The translations under genes were made by a program, and so were the position numbers. Source: an uncultured Myxococcales bacterium (GTDB lineage: Bacteria > Desulfobacterota > Binatia > UBA1149 > SPBQ01). Taken from it: 57,205 nt of DNA. The notes under the pieces are model-generated. The model saw only the letters and a list, made by a program, of their open reading frames with translations, did no database searches and had not been told where the DNA came from. The stretch spans positions 850-58,054 of the forward strand of contig CAYZHO010000003.1 of assembly GCA_964478045.1 (NCBI GenBank). Reading direction: 5' to 3'. Shown here in pieces: positions 25,174-37,256 of this stretch (positions within the stretch are counted from its first letter, which is position 1; each line of letters starts with the position of its first letter).

Positions 25174-25650
25174 TCATTCGATCCTCACTGGAAGCTCTAC
25201 GTAACTGCGTTCCCTCTCCGACCAACCATAGGCTTTGAGCTCGCCCGGCGTCCCCTCCCGGACGGAGACGACGATCTGAGCCGCCTCCGGGTATGAGGGC
25301 TCCCCAAACGGCGTAGCCTGGGCGAGGTCCTCCTCCGAAAAGTAGGCCCCGTGGTCGGGATGAGAGTGGTAGAAGGCCAAGAGCCGCCAGCCGGGCCGGC
25401 GCGCCAAGCGCAGGGCCTCGAGGAGCTCCGCCGAATCGGGGACGTATGCAGTGCGCGCAGTGCGCGGATAGCGTTCGGGGTCGCGCGCATGAAGCTCGTC
25501 CTGCACGTTGCGCAGGGGCACAACCCTCTGGCGGCCGTCGGCCGACTCGAGTACTACGCCACAGCACTCGTCGCGGTACTCCCGTACCGCATGCTCCTGG
25601 ATTTGGGCAACCGTTTCCGGCGCGAGCCGCAAAGATCCGAGACCGCTCAT
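25174..25650 (-). CDS. JAMM/MPN+ (Mov34/PAD-1) metalloisopeptidase, stand-alone
   Basis: The ATG at 25650 starts the gene. The JAMM motif is complete: E(HAVREYRDECCG)...HSHPDHGAYFSEED, matching E-Xn-HxH-X7-S-X2-D exactly. The longer ORF to 26100 overlaps panE and is rejected. Confidence 0.85.
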   Translation of the reverse strand: MSGLGSLRLAPETVAQIQEHAVREYRDECCGVVLESADGRQRVVPLRNVQDELHARDPERYPRTARTAYVPDSAELLEALRLARRPGWRLLAFYHSHPDHGAYFSEEDLAQATPFGEPSYPEAAQIVVSVREGTPGELKAYGWSERERSYVELPVRIE

Positions 25651-25703
25651 GCCAGCAGAGCCCGGTACAATCGGTGCGCTGAAGTCGCAACCCGCGTGGC
25701 CGC

Positions 25704-26708
25704 CTAGAGAGCGCCTTGCTGCCCGAGGCGCGATCGTTCGCGCACGAGCAGGGCCAGCACGCGATTCACCGGGGTGTCGATCCCGTGGCTCTCGCCGCGC
25801 CGGCACACCTCGCCGCAAATGGCGTCGATTTCCGTCGGCTTTCCGCGCTCGAGGTCTTGGAGCATCGAAGAGCGGTGGGCGGCAGTGGCCGGAACCAGAC
25901 GTTCGTAAAAGAGCTTGCGGTATTCCGCCGCCGATGCCCACGGGAGCCGAACGCCTTCGGCGGCGGCAACGGCAAAGGCCTCCTCGATCGCGCGGTCCAT
26001 CACCCAACGCCGGTCTCGATCCTTTGGGAGCTCCCCGTAAGGAACTCCGAGGAGGGCTCCAAGCGGATTCAGAGCGGCGTTGTAAAGAACTTTCGCCCAC
26101 AATGCCGCCTCGATGTCGTCGGTTGCGCGCGATGGGATACCCGCCCGGTCGAACGCCTCGGCCCAGCGCTCGGCGAGAGGAGCCGAGCTCGGAGCCAGCG
26201 CCCCCACCAGGACCGGCTCGGCTTCCACCGTGACGCGAGCCCTTCCAGGAGTGACCAGCTCGGCACCGAAGATCACGCGGCCGCCGAGCACCCGGTCGCG
26301 GCCGTAGGCCGACATCAAGCGCTCGAGATTCCCGAGCCCGTTCTGTAGCGAAATCACGCAGCCCCGATCGCCCGCACGGTCACCGAGCTCCTCGATCAAT
26401 CCCTCGGTCTGGTAGGACTTGCACGTGATCAACACGGCGTCGAAGTCGCGGCCGAGGCGCTCGGGACGCGTCTCGGCCGCGGCCACCCGGGCACTGTGCT
26501 CTCCCCACAGACCGACGACGGATAGTCCGTCGCGTCGGGCCGCTTCGACAACCGGAACACGCCCGAGGATGCTCACGCTGTGGCCCGCCTCGGCCAGGAG
26601 GCACGCGAAAACCGAGCCGATGGCGCCACAGCCGGCCACCAGCACGCGGGCCTTTTCCCCTTGTCGAGCGCCGCTTACCACTTCTGGTTTTGACTGCTTT
26701 GGTCTCAC
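25704..26708 (-). CDS. panE: 2-dehydropantoate 2-reductase (PanE/ApbA family)
   Basis: N-terminal Rossmann motif VLVAGCGAIGSVFA and signature SSMLQDLERGKPTEIDAICG. The start is ambiguous, with GTG candidates at 26708, 26681 and 26645. Confidence 0.85.
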   Translation of the reverse strand: MRPKQSKPEVVSGARQGEKARVLVAGCGAIGSVFACLLAEAGHSVSILGRVPVVEAARRDGLSVVGLWGEHSARVAAAETRPERLGRDFDAVLITCKSYQTEGLIEELGDRAGDRGCVISLQNGLGNLERLMSAYGRDRVLGGRVIFGAELVTPGRARVTVEAEPVLVGALAPSSAPLAERWAEAFDRAGIPSRATDDIEAALWAKVLYNAALNPLGALLGVPYGELPKDRDRRWVMDRAIEEAFAVAAAEGVRLPWASAAEYRKLFYERLVPATAAHRSSMLQDLERGKPTEIDAICGEVCRRGESHGIDTPVNRVLALLVRERSRLGQQGAL

Positions 26709-26717
26709 TCGTATAAA
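26690..26717 (+). promoter_or_regulatory. near-consensus sigma70-type promoter (TTGACT-N16-TATAAA)
   Basis: TTGACT at 26690-26695, a 16-nt spacer, then TATAAA at 26712-26717. It ends 28 nt upstream of the ATG at 26745. The site sits in a locally AT-rich patch that is unusual for this GC-rich window. Confidence 0.45.
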
Positions 26718-26744: not shown

Positions 26745-28784
26745 ATGGAAGCGACCACGACGACCCTGATCGAACGTTTTCTCAAACCAAAGGCCGTTTC
26801 ATCGCGGAAGCTGGCGCGCTCTCCGGAAGGCCGCCTGCTGATGGCCGAAGAAAGTGCGCTCGACATGGACCGGATCCGAGATGCGGGCGTCACGGTAGCC
26901 GAGCTCGGGCGCCGGGTCCGAGTATACAACTCCGACATGACCAAGCAGATCGCCTCCTACATCATTCCGATCGAAATGACCGAGCTCGACGGGGAGGCAA
27001 TCGCTCAAGCGGTAGGCGCAAAGGTCCAGATCGGCCGGCTGCTCGCCGCCGGCGGGCTTTACCTCCGGCACAATCCGGGAATCCGCGAGATCGGGGTGAA
27101 CGACCGAGGGGACACGATCCTGCGCCTCGACCTCGCCACGGCCGAGGACCCAACCATCGGACCGGTTCTCAACTCCTACAACACGAGCCAAGCCGTTCTC
27201 GTCTCTCGGATCGTCGCGCGCATCGACAAGAAGACCCACGACCGCGACGTCAAGGAGGCGCGAGCCTGGCTCGAAGCGATGAATGTCCTGAGCGGCGGGA
27301 AGACGCTGCGCACGCGATTCTACAGCGCGGGGGTCGCCTGCGAGCACCGCGGCAACGTCCCGCAGCTCTACCGGACGGTCCAAGTCAACTTCTTCCAGAT
27401 GAACGACCCCCTTTCCTTGGAACTCGCATCGGCGCTCGAAGAGCGTTACCGCGCTCTCGACCGCAATGTGCCCATGGTGCGAGTGATCTCGGTCATGGGC
27501 ATTCCGCCCAACGAGCGGGCGTACAAGGAGTTCGTCGCCCAGCTCAAACAAAAGAAGCAAAACCCGATGTCGCTCGGCCTGCCGAGCCGCCTGCGAGACT
27601 CCCAGTTCTTCGATTCGGCGACCAAGTCCGTGGTGCCGGCGTGCTTCGTTTACGCTTGCCCACTCGAAGATATCGGGGATTCGATCTACATCATCACGAT
27701 CAACACGGACTACCACGGCGAAATCAAATGCCGCGGGGTCCACTCCGGCGTTGCAGCGGTCATGTCGATGGCGGAAGTCGTCTCCGCACACGCCGGTTCG
27801 GCAATCTTGAGCAGCAAAGGAGGCGCCACGGTCGTCATCGGCGGCGAGGGAGCAGGCAAATCAACCGCCGTAACGTTTTGGGCCGAGCGCAATCGCAGCG
27901 AGCGCCGAAACGAGCTGCGGCGGCGCTACCTGATCGACACGAACTCGGAAGAAAAAGCCGACGAAATCATGCAACGGGTCGGGATCCTCAATCAGGACGA
28001 CTGGCTCGAAATCGTGCCATCCGGCGAGGGACGCTGGGACGTGTGGCCGGCTGAGCGCCACTTCTACATGCGCAGCCGCGGCCTGCTCAGCCGAGACCTC
28101 GTCTTGTCGGAGAACGAACCGATCATCGAAAACGCGACCGCGGACTACGGGGCATCCGGCTCCCGCGAGGCCCTCGGGCGAACCACGCACGACTTCCCCG
28201 ACGAGCGGCTTTTCTACGATCCCGATTGGGACAACTTCTACGCCGACCGGGACGTCCATGCGATTTCGACGATCGTCCTCCTGGAACGCGACCCCGACCT
28301 CGACTACGTCGTGCGTCACGTCTCCCGGCAGGACGCCCTCGATTTTCTAATGCGCGGTCGCAACCCAGACGGCTCGTACCGGCCCTTCTACAACGATTAC
28401 ACCGACGTCTCGGCCTTGCTCATTTCGCAGGGCGTAGTCGGCGACCGGTTTATCGAGGCCTACAAGGCCGCGCGCCGGGGGGACGTCGCTGCTCTGATGA
28501 ACGGCGACGAAGCGCTCGGCCGTTTCGTACTGAACCGGCTGACCGTTCAGGTCGAAGTGTGGCAGCTTATTTTTTCGGACCTACCGGTCTTTGTCGTCAA
28601 CGCCGTGCACGGCTACGACCTCACGCAGGACGTAATTTGGATGGTTTCTGAGCACCCGGACTTTCTGCGGCGCGGACACGAAAAGTCGGTAGTGGAGTTC
28701 CGCGAGCTCATGGCGCGGCGTTACGGAGTGCTCTACGACGAAAGCGGCCGCTGGGCCGCCCTTGGAACCACGGAAGACTCTTAG
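26745..28784 (+). CDS. uncharacterised PEPCK/HprK-superfamily P-loop protein (divergent PEP carboxykinase-like fold)
   Basis: 679 aa. The C-terminal half shows, in ATP-PEPCK order: YHGEIKCRG (cf. YGGEMKKG), HAGSA (cf. HCSAN), Walker A VVIGGEGAGKST (cf. FFGLSGTGKTT), NQDDW (cf. GDDEH), then IENA and THDFP. The N-terminal ~330 aa are unrecognised. Comparison was by eye from memory of E. coli PckA. Confidence 0.5.
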   Translation: MEATTTTLIERFLKPKAVSSRKLARSPEGRLLMAEESALDMDRIRDAGVTVAELGRRVRVYNSDMTKQIASYIIPIEMTELDGEAIAQAVGAKVQIGRLLAAGGLYLRHNPGIREIGVNDRGDTILRLDLATAEDPTIGPVLNSYNTSQAVLVSRIVARIDKKTHDRDVKEARAWLEAMNVLSGGKTLRTRFYSAGVACEHRGNVPQLYRTVQVNFFQMNDPLSLELASALEERYRALDRNVPMVRVISVMGIPPNERAYKEFVAQLKQKKQNPMSLGLPSRLRDSQFFDSATKSVVPACFVYACPLEDIGDSIYIITINTDYHGEIKCRGVHSGVAAVMSMAEVVSAHAGSAILSSKGGATVVIGGEGAGKSTAVTFWAERNRSERRNELRRRYLIDTNSEEKADEIMQRVGILNQDDWLEIVPSGEGRWDVWPAERHFYMRSRGLLSRDLVLSENEPIIENATADYGASGSREALGRTTHDFPDERLFYDPDWDNFYADRDVHAISTIVLLERDPDLDYVVRHVSRQDALDFLMRGRNPDGSYRPFYNDYTDVSALLISQGVVGDRFIEAYKAARRGDVAALMNGDEALGRFVLNRLTVQVEVWQLIFSDLPVFVVNAVHGYDLTQDVIWMVSEHPDFLRRGHEKSVVEFRELMARRYGVLYDESGRWAALGTTEDS

Positions 28785-29851
28785 ACGCGATCCCGGTTTT
28801 CCCGAACAAGCGAAGAACCGGGCGCCCGAACGGGAGGAAGCTCCGCTCCGCTAGCCAAGAAAACGGCGCCACCCACCAGAGATGCTCCCACCACAACCCC
28901 CAGCCAGAGCAAGGCGAGCGCTACGGCACCCTCGCGGGCCACTCCCTGCAGGGCCGAAAGAAAGTAAACGTATCCCATCTCGCGAATGCCGAGCCCGGCC
29001 AGACTGACGGGAATCGCACTGAGAATGGTCACCAGCGGATGGCACAAGAAGTAGTACCGCCAGTCGACCGGCAGGCCGAGCCCTCGGCCCAGCAGGGCAA
29101 CCGCCCCGATCTGCAGCATATGAAATCCGACCGAAATCAGCGCGACTTCGAGCAGCAGGCGGCGGTCCTCCCACAGGCTCGCCAGCTCCACCTCGAGCAC
29201 CTCGCGCAGCGGGTGCCCGGGTCGCAGGCACAGCCGGGCGAGGCCAGGCACGGATAGCCATCCGCACAATGCGGCCACCCCGGCCAGCCCGGTGATCGCC
29301 GCCAGCCCCCGCGGGATGCCCATCCGCCCGAAGGCAAGCATGGCTCCCAGCGCCACCACGACCAGCATTACGAAGCCGATCACCCGGTCGAACACGACCG
29401 TATGGAGCGCGGCGGTACGGCGGTTCGTGGCGCCGCCGAGATAAAGGGAGCGCACGAGATCCCCGCCGAGGGTGCTAGGGCCGAAGAGGTTGAAGAACAT
29501 TCCCACGTAATAATAGAGGCAAACCTTCGCCTTTGATTCGCCAAAACCAGCGGCGCGCGCGATCAGGCCCCACCGCAGGGCGGTTATTACCTGCCCCGCC
29601 AGGTAGAGGAGAAAAGCCACGGCGAAGGTCCACTGCTCCACGTGCCGCAGTTCAGCCCACAAGCGTGCGGTGTCCAGCCGCGATATCACCAAACCCAAAG
29701 CCGCGGCCGAAACCGCCAGCTTTAGCCAGCGCCGCCTGCTTTTCCCGGAGACGGCCGGTCGAACGTTCGCTAGCCGCACGAGCGCTCGATAGCAGCCCAG
29801 GGTTCCTTGCACAATCGGTGCCGCTCGAAACACCTTGACAGCCCCGGACAA
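28781..29851 (-). CDS. flippase-like membrane protein (lysylphosphatidylglycerol-synthase TM region / UPF0104 family)
   Basis: RRWLKLAVSAAALGLVISRLD...L...L......F..A.LLYL.GQVITALRW, followed by multiple TM helices. The start is uncertain (ATG 29851 or GTG 29833). Confidence 0.7.
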   Translation of the reverse strand: MSGAVKVFRAAPIVQGTLGCYRALVRLANVRPAVSGKSRRRWLKLAVSAAALGLVISRLDTARLWAELRHVEQWTFAVAFLLYLAGQVITALRWGLIARAAGFGESKAKVCLYYYVGMFFNLFGPSTLGGDLVRSLYLGGATNRRTAALHTVVFDRVIGFVMLVVVALGAMLAFGRMGIPRGLAAITGLAGVAALCGWLSVPGLARLCLRPGHPLREVLEVELASLWEDRRLLLEVALISVGFHMLQIGAVALLGRGLGLPVDWRYYFLCHPLVTILSAIPVSLAGLGIREMGYVYFLSALQGVAREGAVALALLWLGVVVGASLVGGAVFLASGAELPPVRAPGSSLVRENRDRV

Positions 29852-29863: not shown

Positions 29864-29953
29864 AACGAGGCGTGCGGTCCTGCGGGCCGCCGCTGGAAGC
29901 AGCGAACGAAGTCATAACCGCATCTGTCCTACGGGAAGGAAAGGGAGAGTGCA

Positions 29954-30712
29954 GTGAGAACGACCACCAAACAGGTTGGGGTTCTCGTCGCCATCTTGGC
30001 CGCGGGCCTCATGGCTTGCGTGGACCCGCAAGAGGTCAGCGACATCAAGGCCAAGGTTGACGAGATCCAAGCCCAGCAAAAGGACATCCTGGCCAAGCTC
30101 GACGCGCTCAGCAAAGGCCAGAAGCAGATTCTAGCCAGAGCTCCGGCAGCCGCCAGGAGGCCAACCGAGGACCCGAACAAGGTCTACGACATTCCGATCG
30201 GCAAGTCGTTCACGAAGGGACCGGCCGATGCGGCGGTGACGTTGATCGAGTTCGGGGACTTTCAATGACCGTTCTGCGCACAGGCCACCAGTTTGGTGGA
30301 CAAAATCCTCAAAGCATATCCGAACGACGTCCGGTTCGTCTATAAGAACTTCCCGCTGCCGTTCCACCGCAACGCGATGCCTGCAGCCAAAGCGGCGGTG
30401 GCAGCTGGCAAGCAAGGGAAGTTTTGGGAGATGTACGAAGCCCTCTTCAAGAACTACCGCAACCTGAGCGAGGACTTCTACATCAAGACGGCCAAGGACC
30501 TCGGGCTCGACGTCGAACAGTTCAAGAAAGACATGGAAGATCCGTCGACCCAGGAGTTCATCGCCGAGGAAATGAAGCAAGCCCGCGCGGCAAACGTGCG
30601 CGGAACACCGACCTTCTACATCAACGGCAAGAAGCCACCGGGACGCTCGTTCGAGCTCTACAAGCAGATCATCGACGACATCCTCAAGAAGAAGAAGGCA
30701 AAGGCGAGCTAG
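29954..30712 (+). CDS. DsbA-family thiol:disulfide oxidoreductase lipoprotein with in-frame TGA at the first redox Cys (candidate selenoprotein, UxxC)
   Basis: The two ORF-track pieces (29954-30268 and 30293-30712) are in the same frame and are separated only by the TGA at 30266-30268. Read-through gives TLIEFGDFQ-U-PFCAQ..VRFVYKNFPLPFHRNAMPAAKAAVAAGKQGKFWEMYEALF. This is the DFQCPFC Thioredoxin_4/DsbA pattern. The N-terminal lipobox is LMAC. Confidence 0.75.
30285..30299 (+). promoter_or_regulatory. putative bacterial SECIS-like hairpin
   Basis: CCACC (30285-30289), loop AGUUU, GGUGG (30295-30299). The apical loop starts 21 nt after the UGA and contains GU, and the spacing is comparable to the fdhF SECIS. 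The stem is short, so support is moderate. Confidence 0.4.
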
Positions 30713-30793: not shown

Positions 30794-31951
30794 TCATCGA
30801 CTCCCGGCTACCGGCACGGTCTCCCCGGCCTCCGGCTGCGGCTCCCGCGGGTCGCCCGCGCTAGATCCGGGGATATGATCAAGCCGCTGCCCGTCGACAA
30901 TGACGTAAGCCGGCCGGTAATCCGGCTTGCGGAACCACCAGAAAAACGCTCCACACAGCGTCAGGGCTTCGGCCGCCCAAAAGCCCAGCGCCGCAGACAT
31001 AATCGAATGCGACGTGCCGATGTGCCGCGCTAGCAAAAGCGTTTGGACGATCTCCCGAACGCCCTCGCCGGCGATGGTGAACGGCGAAATAACGGTCGCG
31101 AAGATCTGAATCGTCGACGCGAACGTCACCTGCCAGAACGTGGCTCCCACCGCACCGACGGCCAGCGCCGTAAAGAAGTACATCGCCGCGGTCGTAAAGT
31201 GCACGACGAAGCTCTGAAAGGCCGCGTTGATCAGGATGAGCTTGTGGTCGCTGTATGCGCTTGCCGCCTTCGAAACGCGCTCGACAAACCCCTCGATTTT
31301 GCCGCGCGCCGGAAGCGGCACGCTCGTGATCACCCACTGCACCAAAGCCGGCCGGAACAAGAGGGTGAAAAAAACAACGATGACTCCGGCCGCGAGCGGC
31401 ACGGTAACCAGTTCCACCCGAGCGGCATGCTCGCCCAGCACCGAGACGCCGAAGGGAAGCGCCACAAGGAACGTGATAAAAATGCCGACAATCCCCAGCA
31501 CCTTTTCGATCACCGTGGCGGCGGTAGCCTCGACGGTCTTTCCGCTGAATCTGGCAGCGTCGTACAGCTTGTAACCGTCGAGTCCCACGGTCGAGGGCAG
31601 GAAGGTTCCCAGGAACCGCCCGATTAGGAAGCTTCCGACAATGTGCCAAAACGGAAGCACGATTCCCTGGCCGCGCAAGAGCAGGGTCCAGCGGTACATG
31701 CTCGCCACGATGCCCACGATCTTGATCGAGGTAGCGAGCACGATGAACCGCCAGAAGACTCTCATGTCGATCTCGGGCAGGTGCGCTCGGATCGCGGCAA
31801 ACGTTGTGATGCGGCTGCCGTCCTCGGCCTCCACTTTGTGCGTGAGCAGGAGGTAGAAGGCCCCGACCGTCAAAACGGCCTTGACCGCGGTCGTCAGGAG
31901 CGAGCGAATGCGTGGCGGCAACCGGCGCCAGCTAGCAGTGATGCCGTTCAT
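30794..31951 (-). CDS. flippase-like membrane protein (lysylphosphatidylglycerol-synthase TM region / UPF0104 family), second copy
   Basis: The ATG at 31951 gives MNGITASWRRLPPRIRSLLTTAVKAVLTVGAFYLLL...MYRWTLLLRGQG...FLGTFLPSTVGLDGYKLYD, then multiple TM helices. The 555-aa ORF extension to 32461 is Arg/Ala-rich junk that overlaps the divergent gene and is rejected. Confidence 0.75.
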   Translation of the reverse strand: MNGITASWRRLPPRIRSLLTTAVKAVLTVGAFYLLLTHKVEAEDGSRITTFAAIRAHLPEIDMRVFWRFIVLATSIKIVGIVASMYRWTLLLRGQGIVLPFWHIVGSFLIGRFLGTFLPSTVGLDGYKLYDAARFSGKTVEATAATVIEKVLGIVGIFITFLVALPFGVSVLGEHAARVELVTVPLAAGVIVVFFTLLFRPALVQWVITSVPLPARGKIEGFVERVSKAASAYSDHKLILINAAFQSFVVHFTTAAMYFFTALAVGAVGATFWQVTFASTIQIFATVISPFTIAGEGVREIVQTLLLARHIGTSHSIMSAALGFWAAEALTLCGAFFWWFRKPDYRPAYVIVDGQRLDHIPGSSAGDPREPQPEAGETVPVAGSR

Positions 31952-32117
31952 CGCGTGTTCGGTGAAGGACTCCGTTCGTTTCGAGCCGAGCTCGTCTCCG
32001 ATTCTCTTAGCACGGCCCCGGCAAGGCAGAAACCCCCGTTTCGGGCTGCGGCGGTTCCCTGCTAGCCTTGCGCTAGGCGAGCGCCGCTCCGGCGCTGGCT
32101 CGGAAACGAGGCAACAA

Positions 32118-33326
32118 ATGGCGGACGACGCGCTGCGGTACTGCACTCGCTGTGGCAAACGACTGCAAGCCCGAGCTGCCTTCTGTGCGGCTTGTGGAGC
32201 CCCCGCGCGCGGCCAGGCGGTCCCGGCGCAACCGCTACGCCTAAAGGCCTCGCCGGCCGGGCTCGTCGTTGCGCTCCTGTTCGTGGCCGCAGGAAGTGCA
32301 GCGCTTCTCAGCCAGCTCGGCGAAGCGCCGGCGCCCGCTCGGGCGGTGCCGGGATCGCCGGCGGGCCGGGCGGAGGCTCTTCCCGAGAATGTGCCGGCTG
32401 GACACCCGAGCGTCGAGCTCCCGGCCGAAATGGTAAAGATCATCGACGACCTCCGGCGCACTGCCGAGCAGGCGCCGGACGACGTCGAGGCTTGGACGAA
32501 GTTCGCGCGTGCCGCTTACCGAGCCGGCCGCCTCGACCGCCGGTACATGGCCGAAGCCGAGAAAGCCTTCGCCCACCTGATCGAACTTGATCCGGACAAC
32601 CTCGAAGCAATCCGCGGCCAAGGGAATGCGGCCTACGAGCGGCGCGATTACGCAGCGGCGGAAGCGGCGTACCGGCGCTATCTCGAACTCGATCCCAAAC
32701 ACGTAGGCGTGGCCACCGATCTCGGCTCCGCACTACTGTTCCAGGGCAAGCTCGACGAGGCGGTCTCAACCTACCGGAAGGTTCTCGAGCAGGATCCGGA
32801 CTTCGTACCGGCGCACGTCAACCTCGGAATTGCGCTTCACGGAGCCGGGCGCGTTGAAGAAGCGGAATCCGAATTCGAAAAAGCCTTGTCTCTGGCGAAG
32901 AGCCCCGAAGAAAAAGCCGAGGTGCGCCGCATCATCGAAGCGGCCCGCAGCGTGGCCGCACGGAGCAAGGAAAGCGGTGCCGCTGGGGCACACGCCGAGA
33001 CCAACGCCACAAGCGAGTTTCAGAAGGCGGCCGATGAGCTGCTCACCAGCCAGCCGATCTTCGGACAGCGCATTGCGCGCATCGATTGGACCGGACCCTC
33101 CGCCGCACGCGTGCTCGTTAGCGACTTCCCGATGGAGCAGATGCCGGAGGTCATGCGGAACAAGTTCAAAGCAAATCTGAACGGAGCGCTGTCCTCCTTG
33201 GCTGCCGACCACGGTGTTGGTTCCCCGATTTCCGTGGAACTCGTCGACGCTACAACTGGACGCGTTCTCGAACGCCTGGATGGCAAGGAAATGGTGGGAG
33301 CGTTCGACGAGTCGAAATACCAGTAA
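32118..33326 (+). CDS. zinc-ribbon / single-TM / TPR-repeat protein
   Basis: The ATG at 32118 gives [29 protein letters not shown] (CxxC...CxxC zinc ribbon). This is followed by a TM helix ([16 protein letters not shown]), about 4 TPR units (AY..G....[11 protein letters not shown]...) and a ~110-aa unassigned C-terminal domain. Confidence 0.7.
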
Positions 33327-33343: not shown

Positions 33344-34150
33344 GTGGCTTCCAGCGCCCCCTACTACCTGCCGATAGGCGACGAAAAGGAAATCTTCCGG
33401 GCCGCCTTTCACGAGTCCCTCCCGGTTCTGCTCAAGGGACCAACCGGCTGCGGTAAGACGCGGTTCGTCGAACACATGGCGGCCGAACTGTTGGCACCCA
33501 CCCCGGAGCGTCCGCACCCGTTGATTACCGTGGCCTGCAACGAAGATTTGACGGCGAGCGACTTAGTAGGACGCTACCTGATTCGCGGCGACGAAACCGT
33601 GTGGATCGACGGGCCACTGACGCAGGCGGTTCGCAGCGGCGCGATTTGCTACCTCGACGAAATCGTCGAAGCCCGAAAAGACACCATGGTGCTGATTCAC
33701 CCGCTGACCGATCACCGCCGTATCCTCCCTATTGATAAGCTCGGCCAGATCATCGAAGCGCATCCGGACTTCATGCTCGTTGTCTCCTACAATCCCGGCT
33801 ACCAATCGATTCTCAAGGACCTCAAGCCATCGACTCGCCAGCGTTTCGTCACCCTCGAGTTCGACTATGCTCCGCGTGACAAAGAAGCCGAGATTATCGC
33901 GCACGAAAGTGGCATCGACATGGACACGGCCCTTGATCTGGCACACGTCGGCGAGCGAGTCCGCGAACTCAAATCGAGCGGTTTGGAGGAAGGGGTTAGC
34001 GCTCGCCTCCTGATATATGCGGCGCAGCTCATCCGGCGCGGCATGTCCCCGCGCAAAGCGTGCGAGGCGACTATCGTACGAGGTCTTACCGACGATCCGC
34101 AAACCCAAGAAGCGATCTCGGAGCTCGTCGCTGCCATCTTTCGTGACTGA
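33344..34150 (+). CDS. CbbQ/NirQ/NorQ/GpvN-family MoxR-type AAA+ ATPase
   Basis: [16 protein letters not shown]...[20 protein letters not shown] (Walker A), [13 protein letters not shown] (Walker B), then [23 protein letters not shown] and [10 protein letters not shown]. The length of 268 aa is typical of CbbQ/NorQ. Confidence 0.88.
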
Positions 34151-37100
34151 CTGGCTGAGCAGCCACCACCTGAGGCGAACACCGGAAGGAGCCGCCGCCC
34201 TCGCGAAGCTCGAGCGGCTCGATCCAGCCGTTCGGCGCTGCGTGGTGGCGGCCGGGAACCGCTTGGCCAGCTACTCGGCCACGCTCGCCCAGCGATACCT
34301 GGTGGCGGCCGTCGGTGCAGCCGAGGCCTTGCGGGAGCGCTTCGAAGAATGGCAGCGCACCGTAGAAGAGCTGTTGGCGCAGGGAGGAAGCGGGCCCCAT
34401 CTCATCGAGGCATTTCTCGGCCTCGATCCGATCCAACTCTGGACGGCAGCCCCTGCGGCGCGTGCCGTATGGTTGGAAGCAAGCAAGGAGCTCGCCGGGC
34501 GTTCGCGCCGGATCGGTACTGCCTTTCTGCGCAGCACCGGCCACTTGCTTTCCACCGCACCGGCGGCGAGCCCTGCTCTGATCGAAGGTATCGGCGCAGC
34601 GGCCAACAAAATCGAGCAGTCGAGCGGCTGGCGCGGCGAGACGCTGGCTGTGGAATTCATCGAAACAGTGGCGCGCGCGGGCCCGGGCCTCAACGCCGGA
34701 AGCCTGGATCCGCTGGCTCGAATGGCGGTTGCGCTCGGTGGGTGCGGCCGCGTGCCCCACTGCCTGCGCGTGCCGCCAACCCTTGCCACCCTCGCCGCCG
34801 AGGAACAGCGACACACGGTCGAACTCTCCCAAAAGCAGGCCGAGCGCAATGCCCCTAAAGGTGAGGCTTTGCTCGCAGCCATCTCCGACGCTCTGAGCCG
34901 CTTGGACCGTCCTCTCAGACCGCTGCTCTTGTCGATAGCCGACCGCATTTGGGCCGAAGACGGGGCCGTCGCGACTTTTCGCGTCCTCCCAGCCGTGTGC
35001 CATGAACTGCCAGCTGAGGAGCTCGGCGAGCTACTGGCAATCGCCCGCGAAGTCGCTGGGGTGCTTCCCGCAGCGGCTATCGCGTATTTGCGCGCGATGG
35101 ACCGAGCGCGGGAGCGTTCGGATCTCCGGGGAATCCACCGCTGGGCGGAGGCGGGAATCAAAATCGCCTCTAGAAGCCCTGAGGCAGCCGTCGCTCACTT
35201 CTCCCTGCGCTCGCGTACTTCCCACAAGCTGCTGGCAGCGCGCACTGCGGCCGTGAGCTTCGAGGAAGTCGAGCCGGTTCTCGAGCGCCTCGGCCGCATG
35301 CTGGCACGGGGCCGCCTCCATTTGAACCCGGCGCCAGGAATCTGGCTGCGCCCACCCATCCTGCCAGGAGACGAGCGGGCGGTGGTTGTGCCAGAACGGG
35401 TCGACCTGTGGCCCGAATCCGAGGACAATCAGCGCTTCTATAAGTTGATCGTGGCGCACGCGGCTGGCCGCTGGGAATACGGAACCTACGGGCTGCGCAT
35501 TGCCGAGCTCAGGCGCCAGGGCATCCCGCTCCCTGATGCGACTCCGGCGGACGGAAACCTCGCCGCTTTTCTCGAAAGTTTTCCCAACCCGCTTTTGGCG
35601 GCCGGTCTGTTCGTTCTCCTCGATGGGATCCGGATAGACGCGGCGCTCGCGCGAGACTTTCCTGGACTTGCCCTCGAGGCAAGGCGGCTCGGCCGGTCGT
35701 ACGCCGAGCGCCTGCCGGCGCGAGCGAGCGAGCGCAGCGGCGAGCGCCTGCTCGAGGCGCTGTTCCTTGCCTCCGTTAGCGCGGGCGAAGTGCCGGCACT
35801 GGGCCGGCTGCGTCCGTATTTGGCGCTGGCCCGCCAGGCACTGGCCCGCTTGAGCCAGCCTGAGGCGTCGGTCGTCGACAGCGTACGGTGGACGGTTTCT
35901 CTGTACGGCCTGCTGGCGTGGGCAAGCGCGCGCGCCGACGACGGCAGCGAACCTCCTGCCATTGTCCAACTCGGGGGCGCCACGTTCGTCGACGAAGGGG
36001 CCGCAATCGGATCCCAGGCGCCCGGCGGACCGAGCGGTGAGGCACCCTCCGTCCTGCCCGACGGAGCTCCCAACCCCTCTTCGGTTCCCCTCGAAGTGGG
36101 GGACCCGCAGGAGGAACCCGGCGGCGGGCTACCGATTTCACCCGCCGAGCTCAAACGCTTGATCGAGCAGGGGCTCCAACTGCGCCTATCGCAAGCTGAG
36201 GGCCGCCAGTTGGCCGCCCTTGGTCTGTTCGTCACCGACTTGCTCGGCAAAATGCCGCGAGCGGCCGCAGAGCAACTCCGAGAAGCTTTAGAGCGCGGGG
36301 ACGAAACCGGATTGCGCGCCTGGATCGCACGCCAGCGCCAAGCCCGCTTTCACCTATACGATGAGTGGGACTACCGCATCGGCGACTATAGGCACCAGTG
36401 GTGCCGGGTCGAGGAACTCGAGGTCGACGGCGACGGAGGCCGCACCTTCCGCCAGATGCTAGCGGGCGCTGGGGACCTGATCGCGCGCCTCAAGCGGGAG
36501 TTCCTGTTGATGCGACCCGAGCAGTTCCGCCGCATACGGGGCATGGAAGACGGGCGGGAGTTCGACCTGAATGCCGTCGTCGATGCACGAGTGGACTTGC
36601 TGCGCCGCAAGACTCCTTCGGATCGGTTGTACGTTGACCGCAGGCGCGAAGAACGCGACGTCGCCACCCTGTTTCTGATCGATATGAGCGCCTCCACCGA
36701 CGAACCGCTGCCGGGCGGGAACCGGAGGGTCATTGATCTCACCAAGGAAACGCTCGTGGTCATGAGCTCCGTGCTCGAAGAGATCGGCGATGCCTACGCC
36801 ATCTACGGCTTTTCCGGTTACGGGCGGCTCGGCGTGGAAGTCTACCGAATCAAGTCGTTTCGAGAACGCCTCGGCCCCACCGTCCGCGGCCGGCTCGGCG
36901 CCATCGAGCCTAGGCGTTCGACTCGAATGGGAGCGGCCTTGCGCCACGCAGCGACAAAGTTCGCCGGCGTTTCGGCAAGATCGCGGCACGTCATTCTCAT
37001 CAGCGACGGCTTTCCCCAAGATTTCGATTACGGCGACGACCGGACCTCGAACGTCTACGGGATCCGCGACACCACAAAGGCGCTCGAGGAACTTGAGCGT

Positions 37101-37256
37101 AGCGGTGTTCGTACGTTCTGTATCACGATCGACCCGGCCGGGCACGATTACCTGCGCGAGATGTGTCCGGCGTCCCGCTATGCCGTGATCGACGACGTTG
37201 CGCGGTTGCCCGAGGAGCTCCCGCGCATCTACCGAACCGTCGTGGCTCGGGCGTGA
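34143..37256 (+). CDS. CbbO/NorD-like von Willebrand factor A protein with ~650-aa helical N-terminal extension
   Basis: The GTG at 34143 overlaps the cbbQ-like stop (GTGACTGA). The C-terminal region has [20 protein letters not shown], then a VWA domain with [17 protein letters not shown]...ISDGFPQD. A Pro/Gly/Glu-rich linker lies near 36000-36130. The total of 1037 aa is larger than the usual CbbO/NorD. Confidence 0.75.

Follow-up and report, generated by a model that had tools for sequence, protein, structure and literature searches.

The window analysed here is a 57,205-nucleotide stretch of contig CAYZHO010000003.1 (positions 850 to 58,054 of the forward strand; assembly GCA_964478045.1) from an uncultured Myxococcales bacterium of the GTDB lineage Binatia, and the source of this metagenome-assembled genome (MAG) is a hot-spring metagenome. 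The open reading frame (ORF) at 26745-28784 (+) is a genuine, strongly conserved gene; it starts at the first start codon in the open frame and encodes a protein of 679 amino acids (aa), 76 kDa and pI 5.6 (P0001); alignments with its homologs begin at residue 1-3. It lies between a divergent gene of the ketopantoate-reductase family and a convergent gene for a flippase-like membrane protein (Table 1). The 679-aa protein is a member of a rare, deeply divergent new family of the phosphoenolpyruvate (PEP) carboxykinase (PEPCK) superfamily, and residues ~296-679 have the PEPCK catalytic architecture. A literature search found no published description of this PEPCK-like family.

Table 1. Features of the PEPCK-like gene, its product and its neighbours; residue conservation was counted over 82 full-length homologs
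Feature	Position	Strand	Evidence
Ketopantoate-reductase family (ApbA/PanE) gene, divergent neighbour	25704..26708	-	Pfam ApbA + ApbA_C
Sigma-70-like promoter candidate TTGACT-N16-TATAAA	26690..26717	+	Letters read directly
PEPCK-like protein, coding sequence	26745..28784	+	88 homologs; AlphaFold2 pLDDT 92.4; only PEPCKs among the 50 Foldseek matches listed
N-terminal extension, residues 1-95, family-specific	26745..27029	+	hhalign to PEPCK starts at residue ~99-101
N-terminal domain, residues 96-295, possibly a very diverged PEPCK N-domain	27030..27629	+	Collinearity from low-confidence hhalign only; not backed by isolated-domain Foldseek
Core, residues 296-380, similar to ATP-PEPCK by sequence	27630..27884	+	PF01293 match 316-375; hhalign Prob 88-95%
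Y323-H-G-E-I-K-C-R-G331, counterpart of PEPCK Y207-G-G-E-M-K-K-G	27711..27737	+	Y323 75/82, E326 80/82, K328 77 K + 5 R, R330 79/82
S-A-H349-A-G, counterpart of M-H232-C-S-A (PEPCK Mn ligand His)	27783..27797	+	H349 76/82; Arg in a degenerate clade
P-loop G366-G-E-G-A-G-K372-S-T (kinase-1a)	27840..27866	+	G366 82/82, G371 81/82, K372 79/82, S/T373 81/82
Two-helix insert, residues 380-412, not in PEPCK	27882..27980	+	Gap in every hhalign to PEPCK; helices 385-399 and 402-409 in the model
Q417-D-D-W420, counterpart of kinase-2 (IGDDEH in PckA; RQDD in NF006821)	27993..28004	+	Q417 82/82, D419 78/82
E437-R-H-F-Y441-M-R443-S, counterpart of E-G-G-C-Y-A-K-T (PEPCK nucleotide-phosphate Lys288 region)	28053..28076	+	E437 81/82, Y441 79/82, R443 73/82
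P-I-I-E462-N463-A-T-A-D, counterpart of (L/I)LENV	28119..28145	+	hhalign confidence 6-8; E462 81/82, N463 82/82, D467 82/82
G478-R-T-T-H482-D-F-P-D-E487-R488-L-F-Y491-D-P, invariant block	28176..28223	+	G478, H482, E487 and R488 each 82/82
Helical insert in the C-terminal domain, residues 540-612	28362..28580	+	Model helices 554-612; gap region in hhalign to PEPCK
P-V-F-V-V-N619...G623...T627-Q-D629...W632..S635, candidate for the PEPCK 'LVNTGW...ISIKDTR' base-binding strand and helix	28584..28649	+	N619 80/82, G623 82/82, D629 81/82
LPG_synthase_TM (flippase-like) membrane protein gene, convergent neighbour	28781..29851	-	Pfam PF03706; downstream in 20 Binatia loci

Relationship to PEP carboxykinase in sequence and fold

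By score, the protein belongs to no curated PEPCK family. Searched alone, it matched Pfam PF01293 (ATP-PEPCK) over residues 316-375 with an E value of 0.005 and 16 bits, which does not reach the Pfam cut-off of 26.5 bits. Neither PF00821 (GTP-PEPCK) nor the Hpr_kinase Pfam model gave a match at E <= 10, and a single-sequence search of the PDB returned only noise. Against the NCBIfam PEPCK models, for which the cut-offs are 369-806 bits, the protein scored ~25 bits and its relatives ~19-27 bits, and only the thaumarchaeal members narrowly exceeded the Pfam PF01293 cut-off, at 27.9-29.5 bits. When aligned family members were searched, 22 of 27 matched PF01293 (best E 1.6e-8). Every match of the family profile to the PDB at E <= 1.6 was an ATP-PEPCK (1ii2 at E 0.0025), and the alignment paired NTDYHGEVKSRG...SAHA...GPTGTGKST with Y-G-G-E-M-K-K-G...M-H-C-S-A...G-L-S-G-T-G-K-T. 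An earlier sequence-only reading of this DNA had listed look-alikes of PEPCK motifs compared by eye, and these matches show that the resemblance is beyond chance.

Profile-profile alignment with hhalign against the canonical PckA of the same genome gave a Prob of 88%, and after removal of the family-specific insert the alignment reached through Q417-D-D onto the kinase-2 GDD. Against the subfamily NF006821 (~500-aa PEPCKs) the Prob was 94.9% with an E value of 4.5e-8, with good confidence across QDD/RQDD, ERHFYMRS/EDNFYIKT, IIEN/ILEN and IVLLERD/IIFITRR; E437-R-H-F-Y441-M-R443-S fell onto TEDNFYIKT at confidence 7-9. The Prob was only 7.9% against divergent ~600-aa PEPCK-like ORFs of Nitrososphaeria, and segment-wise alignments to canonical PckA (the N-domain, and the regions past the P-loop) were not significant alone; the alignment could be lengthened with confidence only when the insert was taken out or NF006821 was used. 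Five of the six motif pairs proposed by eye recur in the profile alignments. The ATP-PEPCK motifs YGGEMKKG, MHCSAN and GLSGTGKT are paired with YHGEIKCRG, SAHAG and the P-loop, respectively, the kinase-2 (G/Q)DD with QDD, and ILEN with IIEN. The sixth, THDFP with RVSYP, was not reproduced.

The structure was predicted with AlphaFold2 from a 27-sequence alignment, as the sequence-only reading had suggested, and the model was confident (pLDDT 92.4, pTM 0.89). In a Foldseek search of this model against the PDB, all 50 matches listed were PEP carboxykinases. The ATP type came first (E 1.6e-14 to 1e-11 over ~548 aligned columns; best match with prob 1.00 and a target TM-score of ~0.5), followed by GTP-type PEPCKs at E about 1e-8 to 1e-9.

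The best structural match is ATP-PEPCK (PckA, EC 4.1.1.49, PF01293/TIGR00224; PDB 1AQ2, 1YLH, 2PC9, 1II2), which has the same motif order: Y-x-G-E-x-K, His, P-loop, DD, E..Y.K/R, (I/L)EN and an 'IxxLxxD' strand. Identity is only 11-14%, however, and the family protein is ~140 residues longer, replaces KK with K-x-R and has three additions: 95 residues at the N-terminus, an Arg-rich stretch that follows the P-loop, and a helical insert in the C-terminal domain. Taken alone, its N-domain is unrecognisable. Among the sequence relatives found, the closest is NF006821 (PRK09344.1-3; represented here by loci L026-L028 and L085), which shares with the family 'LHAG' instead of 'MHCSAN' and 'RQDD' instead of 'IGDDEH'. 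These proteins differ in passing PF01293 at 134-236 bits and NF006821 at 557 bits (L026), and they lack all three inserts. GTP-PEPCK (EC 4.1.1.32; PF00821/PF17297) has the same fold and catalytic logic, but its match is weaker and there is no sequence match; in Binatia it occurs together with the family, encoded by a gene of its own. Pyrophosphate (PPi)-dependent PEPCK (EC 4.1.1.38) has ~1100-1200 aa, in contrast to only 679 aa here; no similarity to it was seen, and it was not among the 50 Foldseek matches listed. ATP, GTP and PPi define the three recognised PEPCK classes (PMC8100219).

The sequence-only reading had placed the protein on a new branch of a PEPCK/HprK superfamily and had considered a regulatory kinase. 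The new branch stands and is PEPCK-specific, as seen from the best structure and profile matches and from scores far below those of curated models, whereas the HprK side drops out, with no Hpr_kinase match at E <= 10. HprK/P shares the P-loop kinase core and has the His...P-loop...DD arrangement of this superfamily, and the Arg-rich helix of the insert could serve as a docking surface, as would suit an HprK/P-like protein kinase/phosphorylase that regulates another protein. However, HprK/P lacks the PEPCK Tyr/Lys motif and has another N-domain and a protein substrate, whereas Y-x-G-E-x-K is present here and the 50 structural matches listed were all PEPCKs. Moreover, no partner gene or operon was conserved in any lineage, the gene is kept in archaeal genomes of ~0.8-1 Mb, and the family occurs in Thaumarchaeota, which are not known to have a phosphotransferase system (PTS). 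The HprK-like reading was rejected on the Pfam and Foldseek results, and we regard it as highly improbable.

Catalytic positions and family-specific parts

The histidine, the P-loop lysine and the acidic residue, whose retention had been taken as a sign of an active phosphotransferase, are kept in most homologs (H349 in 76, K372 in 79 and D419 in 78 of 82), and loss in most orthologs was not seen. Within the invariant block, E487-R488-L-F-Y491 appears to be a better candidate than THDFP for the R-V-S-Y of PEPCK, and R488 would be the candidate for Arg333, judged by pattern at low alignment confidence. Order and secondary structure suggest that P-V-F-V-V-N619...S635 may be equivalent to the base-binding strand and helix.

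Loss of catalysis seems to have occurred in side branches that resemble pseudoenzymes but not in the window's clade. One clade (P0083-P0087 and P0089) carries H349R, K328R and D419N, and neither the P-loop nor the Arg-rich insert is present in the distant relatives P0096, P0110 and P0111; loss of catalysis thus need not entail loss of the fold. These losses would fit a non-catalytic PEPCK-derived protein, namely a pseudoenzyme, sensor or scaffold that binds a nucleotide or metabolite without turnover. We consider this improbable for the protein of the window, because conservation at each catalytic position is 90-100% both in the main clades and in that of the window, and even extremely streamlined genomes have kept the gene (PMC7300363).

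The N-terminal domain (residues 96-295) contains the invariant G117-x-N-D-R-G-D123 and N146-T147...R155-L-V-x-R159, with R121 conserved in 82/82, R155 in 81/82 and R159 in 80/82 sequences. A low-confidence hhalign alignment runs collinear from residue ~99 through the PEPCK N-domain; it pairs N-D-R-G-D with (H/E)-(D/E)-R-G, N146-T...R155-L-V-x-R159 with D-T-G-x-F-T-G-R-S-P-K-D-K-F-I-V-R, and helix 162-183 with the following PEPCK helix. Homology of this domain to that of PEPCK is tentatively taken as probable on these low-confidence alignments. When residues 1-345 were modelled alone (pLDDT 86.8), Foldseek against the PDB found nothing (best E 0.16, no PEPCK). The statement that the N-terminal ~330 aa match nothing was thus nearly right, except that the PEPCK-like core begins near residue 296. 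In the two-helix insert at 380-412, which directly follows the P-loop helix, the motif R387-R-x-E-L-R-R-R-Y395 is near-invariant, its residues being kept in 75-81 of the 82 sequences.

Carriers of the family and proposed function

The family is rare, with 42 matching clusters among 1.84 billion representative proteins and 49 loci among GTDB species representatives. Each of the 19 genomes sampled from the window's own order has it, compared with 1 of 132 from the rest of the class; across the phylum sample the count is 2 of 201. Outside Binatia it occurred in 8/81 sampled Eisenbacteria, in one Acidobacteria MAG and in thaumarchaeal MAGs including ATL and ASW8, which are heterotrophic marine Thaumarchaeota (HMT) with near-complete genomes of 0.84-1.0 Mb (PMC7300363). 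Thaumarchaeota also contain further divergent PEPCK-like ORFs that are apparently uncharacterised (L080, L081 and L083 of Nitrososphaeria; L084 and L085). One such group of ~570-600 aa reaches only 52-62 bits to PF01293 (SSYQGEVKKG...GLTGTGKST...NDD), and a second group, with ORFs up to ~590 aa, reaches 134-162 bits.

Other enzymes of the PEP-oxaloacetate node were searched for in 27-28 carrier genomes, and every search picked up its positive controls in reference genomes. ATP-PEPCK was found in 0/27 other carriers. GTP-PEPCK was found in 14 carriers, comprising 12 of the 13 Binatia-order genomes, G214 and the Acidobacteria genome G226; it was absent from all 5 Eisenbacteria, from all 5 Thaumarchaeota and from G208, G213 and G215. 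PEP carboxylase (PPC) of the bacterial or archaeal type was found in 0/28 carriers, and a PYC_OADA (pyruvate carboxylase, PYC) domain in 3/28, leaving 25 without it. Among sampled Nitrososphaeria, 26/81 have a canonical ATP-PEPCK. At least 13 carriers, which represent three or four lineages, therefore have no PEPCK-superfamily member other than this family and no other recognisable enzyme joining PEP/pyruvate to oxaloacetate, in a survey of ATP- and GTP-PEPCK, PEP carboxylase and PYC_OADA that did not take in malic enzyme and PEP synthase/PPDK. We also observed that the window's genome has an ATP-type PckA while 12/13 other Binatia-order carriers have only the GTP type; replacement by transfer or a mis-binned contig is possible.

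The protein is probably a cytosolic enzyme, and we tentatively regard an active carboxykinase at the PEP-oxaloacetate node as its most likely function. Three observations favour it: the Tyr/Lys motif specific to PEPCK has been preserved, the phyletic pattern is consistent with it, and genomes of only ~1 Mb have kept the gene. The tyrosine that contacts CO2 in PckA has a conserved counterpart, which a plain kinase would not need. On the phyletic pattern, ordinary PEP/oxaloacetate chemistry is at least as likely as a different substrate. In such an enzyme, the P-loop (K372, S/T373) would bind the Mg-nucleotide, and K328, H349 and D419 would hold a second divalent cation, like K213, H232 and D269 of E. 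coli PckA. R443 and R488, with either R155 or R121 of the N-domain, would hold the carboxylate and phosphate groups, and phosphoryl transfer would interconvert oxaloacetate with PEP and CO2. The family would then add another class to the PEP carboxykinases. The insert with RRxELRRRY, together with the new parts at the N-terminus, may serve as a lid, as an additional site for anions or as a surface for regulation, and could change the phosphoryl donor. In the Eisenbacteria and the HMT, C4 acids and PEP would be connected by this family alone, and in the Binatia order it would work beside GTP-PEPCK, for example as a PEP-carboxylating enzyme where PEP carboxylase is lacking.

Several observations weigh against this assignment. 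The K212-K213 pair of PEPCK corresponds to K-(S/C/A)-R in the family. The first ~295 residues have no independent similarity to the PEPCK N-domain, which supplies Arg65 and half of the substrate pocket, and the proposed equivalents of R65 (R155 or R121) and R333 (R488) are therefore guesses. The invariant H324, R330, RRxELRRRY, W420, W431, W434, H482 and E487 point to a larger pocket or a different one. A canonical GTP-PEPCK is already present in most Binatia carriers, and the window's genome has a canonical ATP-type PckA on another contig (C71:10221-11594; locus L009:1345-3009; 554 bits). The absence of other node enzymes rests on MAGs, and on only ~4-5 independent lineages.

These observations make it quite plausible that the protein is an active PEPCK-fold phosphotransferase with another substrate, such as a 2-oxo or enol acid, a phosphorylated sugar acid or a cofactor precursor, for which the N-terminal region and the Arg-rich insert would form a new pocket. 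Residues 1-295 have no detectable PEPCK N-domain similarity, the family-specific inserts are large and many invariant residues have no PEPCK counterpart; nearly all Binatia carriers, like the window's genome, also have a canonical PEPCK. The neighbouring genes may also point this way, with a gene for a 2-oxoacid reductase of the ApbA family next to it in divergent orientation at 11 loci of two clades and NadE directly upstream in Eisenbacteria, but no neighbour is kept across phyla. This alternative must also account for the retention of the PEPCK-specific Tyr/Lys motif and the other catalytic positions, and under it the carriers without another C3-C4 node enzyme would have no such link at all.

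PEPCK activity is not missing in Binatia, because most carriers have GTP-PEPCK and the window's genome has ATP-PEPCK; since Binatia carriers keep GTP-PEPCK, simple PEPCK replacement was ruled out as a general explanation. Coexistence has a parallel in PPi-PEPCK, a rare and patchy extra class that usually coexists with a canonical PEPCK, as proposed here for Binatia; most organisms with PPi-PEPCK also keep ATP- or GTP-PEPCK, and it has not been reported in archaea (PMC8100219). Binatota have been reported to use PEPCK, not PPC, for CO2 entry into the serine cycle (PMC8262859). Within the carboxykinase reading, we put forward as a possible but speculative role that the family is a new PEPCK class, perhaps with an unusual donor or directionality, acting as the sole enzyme joining C4 acids and PEP in the HMT and the Eisenbacteria clade and as a PEP-carboxylating (CO2-assimilating) partner of GTP-PEPCK in the Binatia order.

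The PEP-pyruvate-oxaloacetate node is central to carbon flow, and this family is invisible to curated models; its members are annotated as 'hypothetical' or, among archaea, carry the name PckA because of a borderline match. If it is a true carboxykinase, it fills an apparent gap in the central metabolism of the HMT (~1-Mb genomes with no PEPCK, PPC or PYC detected) and of the Eisenbacteria clade, and it is a second such enzyme in an order of Binatia, organisms reported to bring CO2 into the serine cycle through PEPCK. If another substrate is true, the family would represent a rare re-use of the whole PEPCK scaffold for new chemistry.

Gene neighbourhood and promoter

The PEPCK-like gene is predicted to be transcribed alone, since the ApbA gene upstream is divergent and the LPG_synthase_TM gene downstream is convergent; this arrangement and the lack of a conserved operon bear out its description as monocistronic-looking. 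Its stop shares 4 nt with the convergent ORF at 28781-29851 (-), an overlap that had been noted before and is real. The 36-bp upstream gap also described there presupposes the longest upstream ORF. The true start of the ApbA gene is more likely GTG 26672, because the ApbA Rossmann motif comes after that GTG, and with this start the intergenic region is probably 72 bp.

TTGACT-N16-TATAAA, proposed as a promoter by the sequence-only reading, is present at 26690-26717. TTGAC and TATA(A/T) are kept at the same spacing in nine orthologous upstream regions that are otherwise unalignable, which is good comparative evidence for a real promoter. A consensus promoter scan did not call it, since the -10 hexamer has A instead of T as its final base. 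A search for sequencing runs holding the sequence found no RNA runs; only DNA runs, from hot-spring and mat metagenomes, contained it.

Neighbourhoods were compared for 44 loci and the window by ORF clustering and tblastn, with five annotated contexts and Pfam scans of the thaumarchaeal and Eisenbacteria neighbours. Neighbours are kept within a phylum only. In Binatia these are the divergent ApbA gene and the convergent LPG_synthase_TM gene, ApbA being adjacent and divergent in 10 other loci, including a clade at 47% identity. NadE lies upstream of the homolog in Eisenbacteria, and in Thaumarchaeota SufBD is divergent and an M48 peptidase gene convergent. No cross-phylum partner gene or conserved operon was found among these loci. 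The gene is a stand-alone, housekeeping-like one, and its context is otherwise without a functional clue because no cross-phylum partner emerged.

Some further features of these loci were recorded. In eight Eisenbacteria loci, L006:6179-7954, L063:6056-7834 and six others, the gene directly upstream on the same strand as the homolog encodes a glutamine-dependent NAD synthetase (CN_hydrolase + NAD_synthase). In the window, a Prok-JAB deubiquitinase-like ORF at 25174-26100 (-) overlaps the ApbA ORF at 25704-26708 (-) when both are taken as the longest ORFs; the real JAB gene probably encodes ~150 aa, as in locus L001, where the JAB-ApbA pair also adjoins a homolog at 47% identity. The LPG_synthase_TM paralogs at 28781-29851 (-) and 30794-32461 (-) bracket short ORFs at 29929-30580 without a Pfam match. 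In two unrelated lineages (L001:658-1719, L006:3016-5546) the homolog has LuxE/LuxC genes (acyl-protein synthetase / fatty-acyl reductase) no more than 7 kb away, which is probably a coincidence. Further downstream in the window, a CbbQ/NorQ-type AAA+ ATPase gene at 33344-34150 (+) is followed at 34017-37256 (+) by a gene for a 1079-aa protein with a C-terminal VWA domain; the two form a typical MoxR/VWA-like chaperone pair, which is kept ~5 kb downstream in many Binatia loci.

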